From: a bacterium
GTDB lineage: Bacteria > Bdellovibrionota_C > UBA2361 > RFPC01
Assembly (NCBI GenBank): GCA_009926305.1
Contig: RFPC01000002.1
Span: 1,932-65,931 of the forward strand
DNA length: 64,000 nt
Reading direction: 5' to 3'
The translations under genes were made by a program, and so were the position numbers. The notes under the pieces are model-generated. The model was given only the letters and a program-made list of their open reading frames with translations, searched no databases and had not been told where the DNA came from. Below, in pieces: positions 30,081 through 38,348 of the stretch (the first letter of the stretch is position 1; the number at the start of each line of letters is the position of its first letter).

Positions 30081-30155
30081 TGGCTGGCCGGGTAGGATTC
30101 GAACCTACGGATACCGGAACCAAAATCCGGGGCCTTACCACTTGGCGACCGGCCA
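30081..30155 (-). tRNA. tRNA-Gln (anticodon UUG)
   Basis: Reverse complement folds as a cloverleaf: TGGCCGGTCGCCAAGTGGTAAGGCCCCGGATTTTGGTTCCGGTATCCGTAGGTTCGAATCCTACCCGGCCAGCCA. 7-bp acceptor stem, T-loop TTCGAAT, anticodon loop TTTTGGT with anticodon TTG, encoded CCA. Closely resembles E. coli tRNA-Gln. Confidence 0.85.
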
Positions 30156-30388
30156 ACCTGAGACAGTATTCTTGTACCATTCGATCTAATTCTGCAACCT
30201 CTCGGTTTTTTCTCCCACATTTTTGAGAATACACATAACAAGATGGGATAGCGGTTCTAGGTACTGTCGGCTATTATTCACTTTTTTCAGTAGGTTATCT
30301 TGAGGAGGAATCATTCAAGCTGACTCCTGAATTCATCTTGAATACCATAACAAGAAAAGTGGTTACGGTTCGACAGGTGCATTCCTGG

Positions 30389-32314
30389 CTAACGACGTTT
30401 TCCTGCACTGTTCGATGAATATATAGGGAGATGATCGGCAATTTTTGCAATGACGACTTTTCCGATCCTCTCGTCGAAGAAAAAGTGGACTCGAATCTGA
30501 TTCCCTGGCTGATTTCCAAACTTCACATGAGCTTCCGCACATATTGGTTCTCCCTGATAGCTTACAACTCGATGGTTCATCAGCTCACCTCGGGCCTTGG
30601 TCTCTTTCGACTCGGTCATGTTCACCTCGAAGCCAGTTTCAGCTTTGTATCGCTTTGGCTCAAAATTTCCCTCTTCAAACTTCATTTCGAAGAGTCTTGT
30701 CGCCATAGCTTCAAGGAGTTGATTTGCTCTCTTCTGAGCTCCTTTCTTAGAAAGGCATCCTTTTTCAACCATCTCTTCAGCACCGGCGTACGCATCCGGA
30801 TGAATCACCATATTCTCAGAATAGCTCGCTTCCAGGTAGTCGAGAATCTGAAGTAAATTCATCTGCTCTTTTAACGGTTCAAGAATTTTTAAAAGGACCG
30901 TTACTCGCTCTTGCTCTTCTTGTGCTTTAATCTCGAATTGATTTCTATGATGTACCAATTCTCGGGTCGTCGTTTCTAACTCTGTCTCATGCTTCGCTAT
31001 GAGTTCAGCCTTCTCTTGCTTAGTAACACTGTCATAGATGTTCAGCTCCTCCTCTAAACTAGCATTAGCGCTGCGAAGTCTGTTTAACTCTTCCCTCTGC
31101 GCCATATTTTCAGCTTGGAGCTCCGAGAGAGTCGCATTTGTTTGCTTCAGCAGTGCCTCATACCGCTCGGAATCCCTTTGCTCGACACTCAACTCTCGAA
31201 GCTCTTTTGTTTGTCGATTGATGAGCTTTATATTTTCCTCGGATTTTCTAGTATTTTCGAGTAAATCAATATCCTGAATAGTTGCAACGGACAGAGGTGA
31301 ATTGTCTTGAAAAGCCATTCCATTGATTGAACACCGCAGGGCCGAAAGATGGATATCAGAACCTACAAATGGTTGATGCACTAGCTCATTCGTTGATATT
31401 CGAAATTTTCTCATCTCTGAGTCTGCGGACCGCTGCGGATAATACAGTTGAGCAAAGCCCTGAAATGGAATGTCTTCCGACGTCAAACTATGATTGGGAA
31501 GGTAGCCTAATACATCTTGAATCTGCCTCGAGTCCTCTAGTCCATAGACAACTGCAACTCCTCCCAGCGACCTCGCCATTGCTCGCATATCAATCGGATA
31601 TGCGCTATCACCTGCAGGACCATGTATTTTTGCAACGGCCACCGCGAGCAGCTTTCGATCAGGATCACTCATTGCTTTCAAAAACGTATCGGCATTTCTG
31701 CCGTCGATTCGTTGAGGAAGATAACTTACTGGTGCACTGCCAGAAGAGACTCTCCATCTGGTATCGCTGATGATCCGCTGAACAATTCCGGGGGTACTCA
31801 ATGGTGTCGGGTGTATCGCCCCATGGAAATCAGGCGAAACCATCTGTTCATTAAGCAACTTAACCTTAAAGTCCTTTTCACCAACCTGAGATATCCCTAC
31901 ACTCGTCTCCCAAAATCGCGGGTTGAAGTGAAGATCACGCTGAATAAGCCTCATTGCCCAGTGAGTCGGTGTAGGCCCTGCAGCATGCAAGGCAAAAGAG
32001 CGAGTCTCCAATGAAGTATCGAGATAGGCAGAATCTATGGTGTGTCCTGTAATGAAATTCTCGAGAGTTATACCTGCTTCCTGGTTGCCTAATTTTCTCA
32101 GCACCCATTGAAAGACCTCATTATGTAACTCGGCAGGTTCAGCGTCACCCAAATGCACCGTGAGTTCAGTCGCAAAGTTTGGGCGTCGACCGATACCAAG
32201 CCCTCGATCAGAGCCATTAGAGGTCTGAAAGGATTCTCGAAAATGTCTCGGCAATTCGCCTTCAGCACTCAGCTGCTGGCACCAAGCTCGCGATTGCTCA
32301 ATGTTACTGCTCAT
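30389..32314 (-). CDS. large hypothetical multidomain protein (N-domain about 330 aa, about 140-aa coiled-coil, C-domain about 170 aa)
   Basis: 641-aa intact ORF. The central region (about residues 340-480) is heptad-rich (LINRQTKELRELSVEQRD...LNRLRSANASLEEELN). The C-domain contains 'RGELMNH' (Rx5H, HEPN-like) and 'IRVHFFFDERIGKVVIAKIADH'. No family assignable by eye. Confidence 0.5.
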   Translation of the reverse strand: MSSNIEQSRAWCQQLSAEGELPRHFRESFQTSNGSDRGLGIGRRPNFATELTVHLGDAEPAELHNEVFQWVLRKLGNQEAGITLENFITGHTIDSAYLDTSLETRSFALHAAGPTPTHWAMRLIQRDLHFNPRFWETSVGISQVGEKDFKVKLLNEQMVSPDFHGAIHPTPLSTPGIVQRIISDTRWRVSSGSAPVSYLPQRIDGRNADTFLKAMSDPDRKLLAVAVAKIHGPAGDSAYPIDMRAMARSLGGVAVVYGLEDSRQIQDVLGYLPNHSLTSEDIPFQGFAQLYYPQRSADSEMRKFRISTNELVHQPFVGSDIHLSALRCSINGMAFQDNSPLSVATIQDIDLLENTRKSEENIKLINRQTKELRELSVEQRDSERYEALLKQTNATLSELQAENMAQREELNRLRSANASLEEELNIYDSVTKQEKAELIAKHETELETTTRELVHHRNQFEIKAQEEQERVTVLLKILEPLKEQMNLLQILDYLEASYSENMVIHPDAYAGAEEMVEKGCLSKKGAQKRANQLLEAMATRLFEMKFEEGNFEPKRYKAETGFEVNMTESKETKARGELMNHRVVSYQGEPICAEAHVKFGNQPGNQIRVHFFFDERIGKVVIAKIADHLPIYSSNSAGKRR

Positions 32315-32489
32315 ACTTGTTTATTATGTTGTCTTCTTCGTTGAGGTGTCTCAACTGGTTCATTGAATAAGCAAACAACTCATTTTTAAGAGATTTTCTT
32401 AGTTTCTATCCCCAAGAAAATCTTTCTCTTAGGACTATGAGCACTCTGGCTTTCATGACCTTTGAACCATCCGTTCTTCTCGAGATAGG

Positions 32490-33377
32490 CTAAATAATAG
32501 AACTCTTTACGAGCTCAAGAGCATGACTCAGACAGTACTCCTCCAATTTTTCAACATCTTCGATGTGAAATCCAGTCTGATCTTTGGGAAGTATAAAAAC
32601 CCCAGAACCACTTCCCGTCATTCCAACCCTTCCGCAGTTAAGAGCTCTCAGCGCCGCCAGGGTTTCCTTCAGCAAACCACAAAGCGATGACGCTGCTATC
32701 TCTAGATCGTTTTGAATTAAGGAAAGAAGCAGTCCATATTCTTCTGGGAAACTATTCGTGGGCTTTTTAACTGAATTCTCCATTCGCGTAGAATATCCAG
32801 CTTCCTGAAACACGACAGGGGTACCGAGATGCGGCAGTCCAAGGATCAGAAATACTGGTGTTGAGCGAAGGGAACTCGAACGGTCAATATGTAATTGCTC
32901 GCCTATACCCCCGACACAGACTTGAGAGGCCCCTCGGAGAAAATAGGGAACGTCAGCTCCGATGGAAAGTGCGAGCTTAGCCAGTTCAACTTCATCAAGT
33001 GGCTGACCTAAAGCTTCATGCACAGCAGATAAAACTGCAGCCGCATTACTACTTCCTCCTCCAAAGCCCCCTCCGGCAGGGATTCTTTTATCGAGTTCTA
33101 TCAGAATATTGACGTCATTTCTTTGCGTTCTTTCAATGAGTCGAATAGCTGCTTGGACACAAAGATTTCCTTTATCATTCGGTATTTCAGAGGAGCCTCT
33201 TCCTTTCATGGAAAAGAGTACGGAACCGTCCCCCCCTTCAAGCCTGATCTGGAGAGTGTCATGGAGTCCTATGAGTACATTCAGCATAGACAGCTCATGG
33301 TAGCCGTCCGTTCTCCGACCAATTATTTTGAGTCGTAAGTTCAATTTTGCATGAGAATGTGTTGTTATCGTCTGCAT
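32490..33377 (-). CDS. ispE: 4-diphosphocytidyl-2-C-methyl-D-erythritol kinase
   Basis: 'AKLNLRLKIIGRRTDGYHEL' IspE N-motif and 'PAGGGFGGGSSNAAAVL' GHMP-kinase motif. The ORF is open to 33542; the family start corresponds to MQTITTHSHAKLNL at about 33377. Confidence 0.85.
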   Translation of the reverse strand: MQTITTHSHAKLNLRLKIIGRRTDGYHELSMLNVLIGLHDTLQIRLEGGDGSVLFSMKGRGSSEIPNDKGNLCVQAAIRLIERTQRNDVNILIELDKRIPAGGGFGGGSSNAAAVLSAVHEALGQPLDEVELAKLALSIGADVPYFLRGASQVCVGGIGEQLHIDRSSSLRSTPVFLILGLPHLGTPVVFQEAGYSTRMENSVKKPTNSFPEEYGLLLSLIQNDLEIAASSLCGLLKETLAALRALNCGRVGMTGSGSGVFILPKDQTGFHIEDVEKLEEYCLSHALELVKSSII

Positions 33378-34212
33378 GGTTGACTCACATCTTATCGGAA
33401 CTGCCCTTGCTGTTGCAAAATCTGCTGCAAAAAAAGCGGGTCTAGAAGCTCGTAGAATACGCGAACAGGGCTCCTTTTCAATTGAAATGAAAGGGAGTAG
33501 AGATCTGGTGACTGAGGCAGACCTTGCATGCGAAACTATCATAGTGGAGACGATACGCGAGTCGTTTCCCGATCACCTTATTCTATCAGAGGAAGCGCCG
33601 CTTCCGAATCTGAAGAGACTGGCGCAAGGTCCACTCTGGATAATTGACCCGATTGATGGCACTACAAACTTCGCTCATGGACACCACTGCGTAGGAGTGT
33701 CGATTGGATTTGCCATCGATGGTATTCGGCAGGTAGGAGTGGTCTACTGTCCTTTTCTTGAGGAGCTATTTTCAGCCTCCCGTGGGGAGGGTGCGTTCTT
33801 AAATGGTTCGCCGATTCACGTTTCTGGTGTTACAAAACCTGAAGAAGCGCTAATTGCCACTGGATTTCCGTATCAACGCTCTAATATTCAGGGGATTATA
33901 CACCGACTAGAGAGTGCCCTTACTCGTTTCCGCGATGTGAGACGTTTAGGTGCCTGCTCTGTTGATATTTGCTTTACAGCGTGTGGGCGACTTGATGGCT
34001 ACTATGAAGATGTAAAGCCATGGGATGTAGCTGCTGGACTCATGATTGCCGAAGAGGCAGGAGCGGTTATTTCAAGATTTTCCGACCCCTACGCCCAATT
34101 TCCCGCCTGGGAGGACCCAGAAAACCTTACTCCGACTGATATCGATGGAACGAACCTCATCGTTAGTGCCCCTGGAATAGCCGAAGCTCTAATACAGGCA
34201 CTTGAAATCTAG
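33376..34212 (+). CDS. inositol monophosphatase family protein (SuhB/CysQ-like)
   Basis: 'WIIDPIDGTTNFAHG' IMPase signature. 278 aa. Confidence 0.85.
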   Translation: MVDSHLIGTALAVAKSAAKKAGLEARRIREQGSFSIEMKGSRDLVTEADLACETIIVETIRESFPDHLILSEEAPLPNLKRLAQGPLWIIDPIDGTTNFAHGHHCVGVSIGFAIDGIRQVGVVYCPFLEELFSASRGEGAFLNGSPIHVSGVTKPEEALIATGFPYQRSNIQGIIHRLESALTRFRDVRRLGACSVDICFTACGRLDGYYEDVKPWDVAAGLMIAEEAGAVISRFSDPYAQFPAWEDPENLTPTDIDGTNLIVSAPGIAEALIQALEI

Positions 34213-34821: not shown

Positions 34822-36429
34822 ATGGGTACGGCTCCACACGAACATCCAGTAACAACGGGCGCACGGCTCAGGTCAATAATCTTCTCTGAACAGTGTGACG
34901 GTGAAATCGCGAAGGATCTTCTAGCCTATACCGAAAAGAGTCATGCCAGCTCCCTTAGCCCCCAAAACCTCGCTCAGGTGTTCTATGCGTTGGGAAATCT
35001 AGCTCGCAAAACCCCAGATGTGGAGCGATTATTCCATGTAAATCCAAATAAGGAACGACTGCGTTCCCTTACCAGTATTGCTCGACGTCAACTCGACTCC
35101 TTCGAGGCAAGGAACATATCAGAGACCTTATTTGGGCTTATCGGATTAGGGCAACGTTCTGGACCCTTAGTTACCTCATTAGTCGGAAGAGCTGGCGGCG
35201 AAGTTGAAAACTTTGACTTACCGACGCTGGTTCATTGTCTTGGAAGCTTATGCTCACTCAATGTAGAAGAGCGTTTCCAAATGCATTTTGCTCTGCCCGC
35301 TTTTGAACGATTAGAGAGAGATTCTGATAGCCTGACCGATACTGATTTGGCTCGTGGATTACTTTATGCCTCTAAATTACTGCTCGATACTCAAGTAACA
35401 GCCCTTGAAGAAAAATGTCTCGAGAGAATTACGAAGTTTACCTCCTTCGAACTCGGCATTCTTCACGGTGCGAGTAAAATCTCTGGCTCTGAGTTTAGTC
35501 AAGATATCCTTGAAGAAGTAACTCGGAGACTCCAACATCAACCAGAAGAACTCAAGAGCAAGCAAATATTTGAATTCATGACTCACCAACTTCGTGCTGG
35601 CTTAGCGCATGATGGATTTATAGAAGGGCTCATACCGGAAATATCGAATCGGCTTGATGGATGGTCTTGCTCCGAATGTATAGACGCACTTCACTATCTT
35701 GCATATTTTAATGCGCGGGAAGAAACATTACAGAACCAGCTGGGAGATAGGATAGCTCTCGAGATTGATTCTCTTACGTGGCATGAACGAGCGATAACGA
35801 CTTGGTCCTTTGCTCGTCTCAACATACCCCATCAACCCCTGCTTACAGCCATAGAAGAACGAATAGGTGAGCTCCAGTCCAAAATATGTTCTCCACAAGA
35901 TCTTGCCACCTTAGCTTGGAGCTATGCATTATTAGAAAAGGATAATGCAAAAGAAATTGTCAACACTATTTCCTCAATCTTCGAAACTGAAGCATCAGGA
36001 CCACAAGAACAGCGACAAATGTATCATGCAAAAGTTGCCTTGGGACTATCGTCACCTGGAAGCTATGCTAAGCCCATTCAAGAATTAGCTGAACAGGAGA
36101 TTCGAGCGCACAAAAAGAATGGTTTTGAACGAGAAGTACTGAGTCACTTAAAAAACTTTGAGCCGGCAATCAAGCTTTACACTGAAACGATCATAGAAGG
36201 ACTCTGTCCAGATTTTGTTATCTTCGCTGACAATCGGAAAATTATATTGGAGACAGATGGCGTACGCTATCACCATCTATCAGACGGGACTCCAAAGGGT
36301 AATGATATACTTCAGGATACCATTATGAAACGAGCAGGGTACGAGGTGCGACATGTGACTGATCAAGAATGGTATGCTTTGAATAATCGAGAGAAGGAAG
36401 CTTTTCTCAGAGATCTTCTCTCTCTCTAG
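34822..36429 (+). CDS. protein with FASTK-like helical repeats and C-terminal RAP/DUF559 (Vsr-like PD-(D/E)XK fold) domain
   Basis: Repeated about 35-aa helical units (LAQVFYALGNL, ISETLFGLIGL, LPTLVHCLGSL, LARGLLYASKL, CIDALHYLAYF, ITTWSFARLN, LATLAWSYALLE). The C-terminus 'PDFVIFADNRKIILETDGVRYHH...RAGYEVRHVTDQEWYALNNREKEAFLRDLL' matches the RAP/DUF559 pattern (ExDG..H ... GW.V..V...EW). 535 aa. Confidence 0.55.
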   Translation: MGTAPHEHPVTTGARLRSIIFSEQCDGEIAKDLLAYTEKSHASSLSPQNLAQVFYALGNLARKTPDVERLFHVNPNKERLRSLTSIARRQLDSFEARNISETLFGLIGLGQRSGPLVTSLVGRAGGEVENFDLPTLVHCLGSLCSLNVEERFQMHFALPAFERLERDSDSLTDTDLARGLLYASKLLLDTQVTALEEKCLERITKFTSFELGILHGASKISGSEFSQDILEEVTRRLQHQPEELKSKQIFEFMTHQLRAGLAHDGFIEGLIPEISNRLDGWSCSECIDALHYLAYFNAREETLQNQLGDRIALEIDSLTWHERAITTWSFARLNIPHQPLLTAIEERIGELQSKICSPQDLATLAWSYALLEKDNAKEIVNTISSIFETEASGPQEQRQMYHAKVALGLSSPGSYAKPIQELAEQEIRAHKKNGFEREVLSHLKNFEPAIKLYTETIIEGLCPDFVIFADNRKIILETDGVRYHHLSDGTPKGNDILQDTIMKRAGYEVRHVTDQEWYALNNREKEAFLRDLLSL

Positions 36430-37778: not shown

Positions 37779-38348
37779 CTATATCGTCAAAGCAGGTATA
37801 AGAAATAGATACACAACTGAGGCAACCGCAGAAAGAATACCGCACAGGAATGAAAGATATGCCAACCGTACATAGCGCAACTTTTCCTTTGCCAAATATT
37901 GACCTAAATCGTAGATCTCTCTTACCTGCACGCGATAAGCAAGCGCGTGGTCTTTCAGAACTCCTTCCCACGCTCTTTCAAACTCTTCATACGGTATGTT
38001 TATAAAGTTTCCAAAAAACAAAGAGCGCATAGCATCAAACGGCACTTCATGACTGAGACGTGTCGTCGTCTTACCAAATTTTTTGGGCATTACAGCGTAA
38101 ACCGCGAACAAAACGGTAAACACTCCAGAGATAATAAGAGAAATGGCTATCATCTCAAGCTCTGGCTTTAGAAGCAGTGGTGCGCTCAGAGTAATAATCA
38201 GAGAGCTAATAGTTATCAGCATATTGGCCTTCGTATCAATCATCATACTAATTTGTTGATGATGAAGACGCGTCTGGCGAATAAGATGATCGAAGTGTGA
38301 TCCAGGTTCTTTTACCTCAAACTGACGCATTGCTTCAGAGCCCTCCAT
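37779..38348 (-). CDS. small 2-TM membrane protein, possibly Pycsar-effector-like (DUF5706)
   Basis: 189 aa. N-terminal cytoplasmic helical region with 'DTKANMLITISSLIITL' leading into TM1, and a second TM at the C-terminus. The family call is from memory of the motif and is weak. Confidence 0.3.
   Translation of the reverse strand: MEGSEAMRQFEVKEPGSHFDHLIRQTRLHHQQISMMIDTKANMLITISSLIITLSAPLLLKPELEMIAISLIISGVFTVLFAVYAVMPKKFGKTTTRLSHEVPFDAMRSLFFGNFINIPYEEFERAWEGVLKDHALAYRVQVREIYDLGQYLAKEKLRYVRLAYLSFLCGILSAVASVVYLFLIPALTI

Follow-up and report, generated by a model that had tools for sequence, protein, structure and literature searches.

HEC-07 (Hma-embedded candidate 07, PADLOC models PDLC04158-04161) is a candidate anti-phage family for which an AdoMetDC-like N-domain, a thioredoxin-like domain without the CxxC motif and a C-terminal RelE-family RNase resembling Helicobacter pylori HP0892 have been described, and it was among the 7 of 9 candidates that cut plaquing in Escherichia coli (Payne et al., preprint, bioRxiv 10.1101/2024.01.29.577857). 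In the Menshen system (NsnABC), NsnC is encoded downstream of nsnA (ParB-DUF262) and nsnB (ABC ATPase), and combines an inactive PIN-like domain at the N-terminus with a C-terminal PB-BECR1-type domain whose best match is YafQ and which carries an H-R-H triad (PMC12065111). Here we describe ORF641, a complete open reading frame (ORF) of 641 amino acids (aa) on the minus strand of a 64,000-nucleotide (nt) stretch of bacterial contig RFPC01000002.1, hereafter the window. Judged by profile matches, ORF641 is a divergent member of HEC-07, itself a candidate single-gene anti-phage family. We read it, with moderate confidence, as a chromosomally resident, autoinhibited sensor-effector of HEC-07 type and a candidate anti-phage protein. 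Coordinates of all features are given in Table 1.

Family searches place ORF641 in HEC-07

Neither Pfam (no match at E ≤ 0.1) nor NCBIfam assigns a family to ORF641, hence its orphan appearance. The initial annotation of the window called it an orphan of unknown family, and the second half of this description holds for Pfam and NCBIfam but fails for PADLOC. There, HEC-07 model PDLC04161 matches ORF641 in two stretches (E = 1.1e-20), with aa 110-261 lying on profile positions 83-229 of 553, and several NsnC models match the last ~80 residues, the best being PDLC03914 (E = 5.4e-9, profile positions 234-314 of 314). The NsnC matches are confined to the C-terminal part, covering aa 552-631 in the best case and starting from aa 426 in one weaker case.

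As for being an orphan, an exhaustive HMMER profile search over 1.84 billion cluster representatives returned 994 representatives at E ≤ 1e-3, 438 of them at E ≤ 1e-10. Family members are mostly 550-640 aa long, and most match in both the N and C regions, with some matching almost the entire profile in a single stretch. A sample of 68 of the 994 representatives was aligned and scanned with PADLOC and Pfam: all 68 matched HEC-07 (best E = 3.6e-47) and 65 matched NsnC, while no specific Pfam family, BECR toxin families included, was found among them. Word-indexed searches, whether started from the full protein, from the N-domain by itself or from the 68-sequence alignment, returned only the three closest proteins; the whole family profile cross-matches coiled-coil proteins, and it is probably the coiled coil that filled the candidate lists of these searches.

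ORF641 is approximately 20% identical to typical HEC-07-family members of 550-560 aa. In the tree, the eight closest sequences form one clade with 200/200 support, in which the window protein and P0002, its orthologue on contig L001, are sister to the remainder. A phage origin was considered and rejected, given that the phage collection yielded a single match, an UNVERIFIED and unannotated 6.8-kb faecal scaffold at 22% identity. Searching genome and viral contigs with an alignment of the seven-sequence subfamily returned one genome locus and zero viral contigs.

The C-terminal domain resembles RelE/YafQ toxins

The model of the C-terminal domain presents a RelE/ParE-type fold, with the BECR core of one or more helices against a four-stranded antiparallel sheet, and the fold search matched it to RelE-superfamily toxins, YafQ being the best. 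As modelled, the last ~90 residues thus adopt a RelE/YafQ-type (BECR) fold, which bears out the earlier impression that the block IRVHFFFDE..KVVIAKIADH is RelE/ParE-like. Eight putative catalytic residues of this region (E568, T572, R582, H596, K598, R608, H610 and H628) are conserved at 82-100% across the 68 aligned members and all are kept in ORF641. H628, conserved at 99%, is located 13 residues from the C-terminus and is equated by position only with H543 of the tested HEC-07 protein; around this last conserved histidine ORF641 reads IAKIADHLP versus the family consensus IGHCGDHL. By analogy, H596, R608 and H628 may correspond to the H-R-H triad of NsnC. Aligning the C-domain profile with the verified YafQ sequence in hhalign gave a probability of 1.6%, and for this reason we infer, and do not assert, residue equivalence to YafQ.

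The same domain had been proposed to be a HEPN-type RNase on account of an Rx5H motif, and one such string does occur, at aa 575-581. It is, however, one of four Rx4-6H matches against 4.1 expected by chance, the family alignment shows no conservation of R575 or H581, the domain is of alpha+beta type, and the fold searches returned zero HEPN matches. We therefore rejected a HEPN identity, whose probability we consider negligible.

The N-terminal region and the central helix

The family alignment shows two conserved blocks with a variable helical region between them. The first block, of ~300 residues, shares homology with the N-terminal portion of the HEC-07 profile, and its family-conserved residues (W70, W119, R133, W135, P171, P175, R220 and G252) are all kept in ORF641. 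Preceding it, the first 40 residues are an extension specific to the close clade and little conserved in the family at large (alignment occupancy 0.11-0.41, predicted local distance difference test score, pLDDT, <50), and the GLGIGRRPN motif found therein is common to the three closest homologues only. Searches against PDB sequences returned nothing significant for the N-domain profile and coiled-coil artefacts only for the full family profile. A full-length AlphaFold2 model, built from a three-row alignment, reached a pLDDT of 49.7, with values below 50 over most of aa 1-345, and given this low confidence it was left out of the fold search.

In that model the central segment forms continuous helices at aa 346-374 and 383-484 (pLDDT 64-80), and its composition is rich in E, L, Q, R and K with a single Pro and no Gly. 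The local heptad a/d pattern is significant (P = 0.002), with a single register over aa ~362-445 and register shifts on both sides, but the global 3.5-residue Fourier periodicity is not, and on this basis the segment is a coiled-coil-like helix with register breaks. The heptad coiled coil of ~140 aa described in the initial annotation is accordingly right as to a long helix with local heptads, and not as to a periodicity running through it. The overall layout it had outlined, a globular N-terminal part, a coiled coil and a C-terminal RelE/ParE-like block, is the one found here.

ORF641 is a solo gene

The 175-nt upstream spacer has no antitoxin-sized ORF, the 233-nt downstream spacer has no credible small ORF, and Rfam found nothing in the spacers except tRNA-Gln. 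ORF641 is a solo gene, with no adjacent antitoxin gene or RNA element in its spacers. These spacers had been described as AT-rich; their GC contents (0.371 and, downstream, 0.403) fall within the range of the other 32 intergenic spacers of the window (0.337-0.494, mean 0.432). The palindrome GTTGAG-GTGT-CTCAAC reported from the upstream spacer does exist (32340-32355), but a perfect 6-base-pair (bp) hairpin arises in ~20% of shuffles of this spacer (P~0.2) and the sequence is not kept upstream of the L001 orthologue. Given that neither shuffles nor conservation support it, its role as an operator was rejected. A promoter-like site at 32352..32323 is weak (9/12), and such sites are no more numerous in the region than in shuffles.

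A single gene with no partner and a C-domain of RelE/ParE fold could also be a selfish or stress-responsive RNase of toxin-antitoxin type, fused and autoinhibited in cis, that serves addiction, persistence or growth control and not phage defence. Fused toxin-antitoxin mono-genes of the RelE/ParE superfamily are documented, and the locus is not a defence island. On the other hand, the family was recovered through genes embedded in defence systems, plaquing was lowered by one of its members, other members adjoin Thoeris, GmrSD and HsdM genes, and the large conserved N region plus coiled coil exceed what an antitoxin needs. Toxin-antitoxin and defence roles are, moreover, not mutually exclusive. 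As an account that leaves phage defence out, we regard it as unlikely.

Near-identical strains have lost almost the whole gene

Two alleles of ORF641 occur among metagenome contigs of the same population, whose ispE genes are 99.7-100% identical. The intact allele is represented by L004 at 99.4% identity, and the 90% cluster comprises seven full-length sequences. In the deleted allele (L005 and L006, ispE 99.7% identical), blastn and the junction sequences show an in-frame loss of 1728 bp, so that 576 of the 641 codons are gone and the remnant of 65 aa consists of aa 1-18 fused to aa 595-641. The deletion took place between two imperfect direct repeats of 9 bp, GTGCTGAAG at 32268..32260 and GTGCGGAAG at 30540..30532, and the junctions are located at L005:2239-2247 and L006:5047-5055. 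Since the mismatched repeat base at the junction is T in L005 and G in L006, the data suggest that the deletion is recurrent, or that a single event was resolved differently or is old enough to have diversified. The 65-aa remnant is also found as P0111, P0159 and P0160, at least two of which come from contigs besides L005 and L006, with several amino acid differences among them, so that at least three variants of the remnant exist; the deleted allele is present on at least 4 contigs.

Loss of ORF641, as it occurs in nature, is therefore not lethal to the cell. Because near-identical strains lack almost the whole gene, it is dispensable, which is in keeping with an accessory and costly function and speaks against a housekeeping one.

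Long residence in a variable slot

The position of ORF641 next to a tRNA gene had been taken as a sign of horizontal acquisition. Integrative elements usually target the 3′ end of tRNA genes. ORF641 is on the 5′ side of tRNA-Gln, no integrase was found among the neighbouring genes, and there are no att-like repeats, only short ones at chance level. In codon usage it ranks second of 28 long ORFs in closeness to the window average, and its GC and GC3 match those of its neighbours. On L001, the orthologue P0002 (51% identical) occupies the same ispE...tRNA-Gln...prs interval, with tRNA-Gln between the homologue and prs; for comparison, L001 and the window are 56% identical in ispE, 48% in a RAP-domain neighbour and 97% in prs. 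Orthologue and ispE, 51% and 56% identical at the same interval, are in line with long co-divergence in place, and we read ORF641 as a long-resident, dispensable gene at this site, not a recent insertion. A tRNA-targeted genomic island was rejected on the grounds of the missing integrase and att repeats, the 5′ position and the native composition, and the suggestion of horizontal insertion finds no support.

The ispE...tRNA-Gln interval of L001 (L001:8796-13705) holds additional genes for a major facilitator superfamily (MFS) transporter, an M23 peptidase and a GNAT acetyltransferase, none of which is present in the window. In the Bdellovibrionota-like lineage this interval is a variable slot. 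More distantly related bacteria, such as L020 and L025, have ispE-prs-rplY-pth without the gene. Variable presence, which the initial annotation had proposed to look for in related genomes, holds in one respect, the in-frame deletion in near-identical strains.

The kept position in L001, the native codon usage and the orientation shared with the translation-related gene block, together with the fact that RelE-fold proteins act on the ribosome, would be in line with a housekeeping factor of RNA or translation metabolism that is specific to the lineage and perhaps expressed together with tRNA-Gln, prs, rplY and pth. We consider this highly improbable in view of the codons lost in near-identical strains, the varying content of the slot among relatives, the absence of the gene from the conserved block of L020 and L025, and the patchy distribution of a family that is often found in mobile or defence contexts.

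Contexts of family members and a three-gene cassette

One such context is that of P0011, a typical member located in a defence island on a locus resembling an integrative and conjugative element: immediately upstream are SIR2/STALD, three ThsB-TIR genes, a methylase and GmrSD, and a relaxase and a recombinase are also present at the locus. P0019 adjoins HsdM, while P0014 and a Bradyrhizobium plasmid copy are found in regions rich in insertion sequences (IS). Another typical member, P0012 (559 aa, L059:8348-13513), is located between the substrate-binding-protein and permease genes of an opp oligopeptide ABC transporter operon, and is the second example of a solo HEC-07-family gene within a housekeeping operon.

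Nearer to ORF641 the picture is a different one. In four of the six nearest non-orthologous representatives (P0004, P0006, P0007 and P0009), the HEC-07-like gene is the middle gene of a cassette encoding a protein of ~270-300 aa, the HEC-07-like protein (603-711 aa) and a protein of ~1900 aa with SNF2-rel_dom, Helicase_C and DUF488 domains. Gaps between genes range from -4 to +12 nt, and between loci the ~290-aa protein is 31-50% identical and the ~1900-aa protein 41-46%. The five cassette listings of Table 1 correspond to four independent loci, L055 being a second copy of the L054 locus. The ~270-300-aa protein has zero Pfam or PADLOC matches. For the ~1900-aa protein, PADLOC gave generic helicase likeness (ZorD, DrmD, DpdE) and, for the DUF488 portion, a match to PDC-M45B. 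PADLOC holds no system of this composition, and the cassette may be an uncatalogued defence system.

Both cassette partners are missing from the window and from L001, and two members of the cassette-linked group, P0005 and P0008, are solo copies. A 60-aa ORF located 22 nt upstream of the solo P0008 (L051:9796-9978) is missing from both the window and L001, and may be either a spurious call or a small partner, for example an antitoxin.

Two readings follow from the cassette. The subfamily of ORF641 might supply the effector or the sensor of a three-gene defence system that is not yet catalogued, the solo copies of Bdellovibrionota type being derived and either autonomous or repurposed in a housekeeping operon; we hold this possible though doubtful. 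Alternatively, ORF641 might be a relic, an orphaned subunit of the SNF2/DUF488 cassette that is non-autonomous and heading for loss, as the missing partners and the deletion alleles spreading in the population would have it. Yet the ORF is intact at its full 641 aa with all family-conserved residues kept, the intact solo orthologue at 51% identity in L001 implies that purifying selection has acted for long with no partners present, HEC-07 functions as one gene, and solo copies exist within the cassette-linked group itself. A relic thus appears distinctly unlikely.

A candidate autoinhibited sensor-effector

We propose that ORF641 would act as a self-contained sensor-effector. In the uninfected cell, the N-terminal region would keep the C-terminal RNase inactive, probably through coiled-coil dimerisation. 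A phage cue would free the RNase, and the freed enzyme would cut mRNA or other translation-linked RNA, leading to translation arrest and an aborted infection. In favour of this proposal, ORF641 is colinear with the family, keeps the conserved residues, has no antitoxin and is dispensable, and family members elsewhere are found in defence or mobile contexts (the Thoeris/GmrSD/methylase island, HsdM, IS-rich regions). The early guess at a single-gene anti-phage or abortive-infection protein is supported by HEC-07 membership, by the plaquing reduction of the family's representative and by the RelE-superfamily match of the C-domain.

Several observations weigh against it. Comparison of the C-domain with YafQ and all PDB chains by sequence or profile was not significant and all Foldseek E-values were above 1e-3; as sequence links to solved structures are absent, the relationship to RelE rests on the fold and on the sequence link to NsnC. 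ParE-type members of the RelE fold are gyrase poisons, and the RNase activity of the modelled domain is putative. The sole phenotype, reported in a preprint, belongs to a distant HEC-07 representative, with ORF641 ~20% identical to typical members. The fold label of the N-domain comes from Payne et al. alone, the full-length model having the low pLDDT of 49.7. The nearest non-orthologous relatives are part of a three-gene cassette, so the solo copy may not be autonomous. In addition, the locus in the window is free of further defence genes, of genes from mobile elements and of any anomaly in composition.

The locus and its neighbouring genes

On the minus strand, the order is ispE (32490..33380/33542), ORF641, tRNA-Gln(ttg), prs, rplY/ctc and pth, followed by an H+-pyrophosphatase gene. 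Coding neighbours were assigned by Pfam, except for the pyrophosphatase, named from sequence alone, and the tRNA by ARAGORN and Rfam; the arrangement from ispE to pth is the one given by the initial annotation, whose coordinates and length for ORF641 agree with the ORF list (stop codon at 30389-30391). The longest ispE ORF (350 aa, start at 33542) overlaps by 167 nt a divergent inositol-monophosphatase-like gene (33376..34212). Since the tblastn match to L001 ispE begins at M55 (33380), this is probably the true start.

Two further genes of the window deserve mention. At 37779-38348 (minus strand), a 189-aa gene matches PycTM models (Pycsar transmembrane effector, PADLOC E = 4e-9) and is kept in L001 (Pfam PycTM). 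It has no adjoining cyclase gene, its neighbour being a methylmalonyl-CoA-mutase-like gene by L001 synteny, and it looks like a lone Pycsar-type effector. At 34822-36429 (plus strand), a gene encodes a protein of 535 aa that joins a FAST-kinase-like region to a RAP / MTES_1575 restriction-endonuclease-like domain at its C-terminus (Pfam E = 1.8e-7 and 6.3e-6) and is the RAP-domain neighbour compared with L001 above (48% identity). This architecture of FAST-kinase-like region plus RAP is typical of eukaryotic organellar RNA-binding proteins.

Table 1. Features of the ORF641 locus in the window, and cassette loci on other contigs.
Feature	Position	Strand	Basis
ORF641, HEC-07-family protein	30389..32314	-	ORF list, PADLOC, family search
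N-terminal extension, aa 1-40	32195..32314	-	alignment occupancy, pLDDT
N-terminal globular region, aa ~41-345, putative sensor/regulatory module	31280..32194	-	PADLOC HEC-07 match, conserved residues
Central long helix / coiled coil, aa 346-484	30863..31279	-	model, heptad statistics, composition
C-terminal domain, aa 485-641: helical lead-in and RelE/YafQ-like (BECR) putative RNase effector	30392..30862	-	
RelE-like fold core, aa ~553-628	30431..30658	-	conserved residues, modelled secondary structure
Upstream spacer, 175 nt	32315..32489	-	
Downstream spacer (ORF641 to tRNA-Gln), 233 nt	30156..30388	-	
tRNA-Gln(ttg), downstream edge of variable slot	30081..30155	-	ARAGORN, Rfam
Segment between imperfect 9-bp direct repeats, lost in sister strains	30532..32268	-	blastn, junction sequences
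Three-gene cassette loci	L003:7296-16227; L052:2032-10625; L053:2-8450; L054:5484-13917; L055:1475-9908		

Implications and comparison with known systems

These findings overturn nothing in current understanding. They allow ORF641 to be annotated as a HEC-07-type candidate defence protein with a putative RelE/YafQ-fold effector in a sparsely sampled Bdellovibrionota-like lineage. Solo HEC-07-family genes inside core housekeeping operons, as in the window and in the opp operon of L059, would escape screens based on defence islands. As intact and deleted alleles coexist in one population, metagenome time series could serve to relate the gene to phage pressure. The tight linkage between the sister clade and a giant SNF2/DUF488 helicase hints at a multi-gene system absent from PADLOC.

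Among described systems, HEC-07 is the closest: its profile is matched in two stretches by ORF641 and by all sampled relatives, both are single genes whose products lead from a globular N-terminal part through a helical linker to a RelE-like domain at the C-terminus, and both have a conserved histidine ~10-13 residues from that end, which may be equivalent by position. ORF641 differs from the typical 550-560-aa members in its ~20% identity and separate clade (200/200), in its N-terminal extension of ~40 aa and longer coiled coil, and in its location in a housekeeping block, outside any Hma system or defence island. Such embedding is the setting in which the family was discovered and not something its structure demands. 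With NsnC, ORF641 shares sequence similarity over the C-terminal ~80 residues (E = 5.4e-9), as do 65 of the 68 family members, along with YafQ as best structural match and a conserved H...R...H pattern. Unlike NsnC, it has no NsnA (ParB-DUF262) or NsnB (ABC ATPase) adjoining it, its N region matches the HEC-07 profile and no N part of NsnC, and it is about twice as long, with a long coiled coil. From RelE/ParE (BECR) toxins ORF641 differs in having neither a Pfam RelE/ParE match nor significant sequence or profile similarity to them, and in carrying the domain fused to ~550 extra residues without an adjoining antitoxin.

CapRel(SJ46) is a fused toxin-antitoxin defence protein in which a sensor or antitoxin-like part restrains a translation-targeting toxin until a phage cue. 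The logic proposed for ORF641 would be the same, but toxin fold and chemistry are unrelated; the likeness is one of possible working and not of family.

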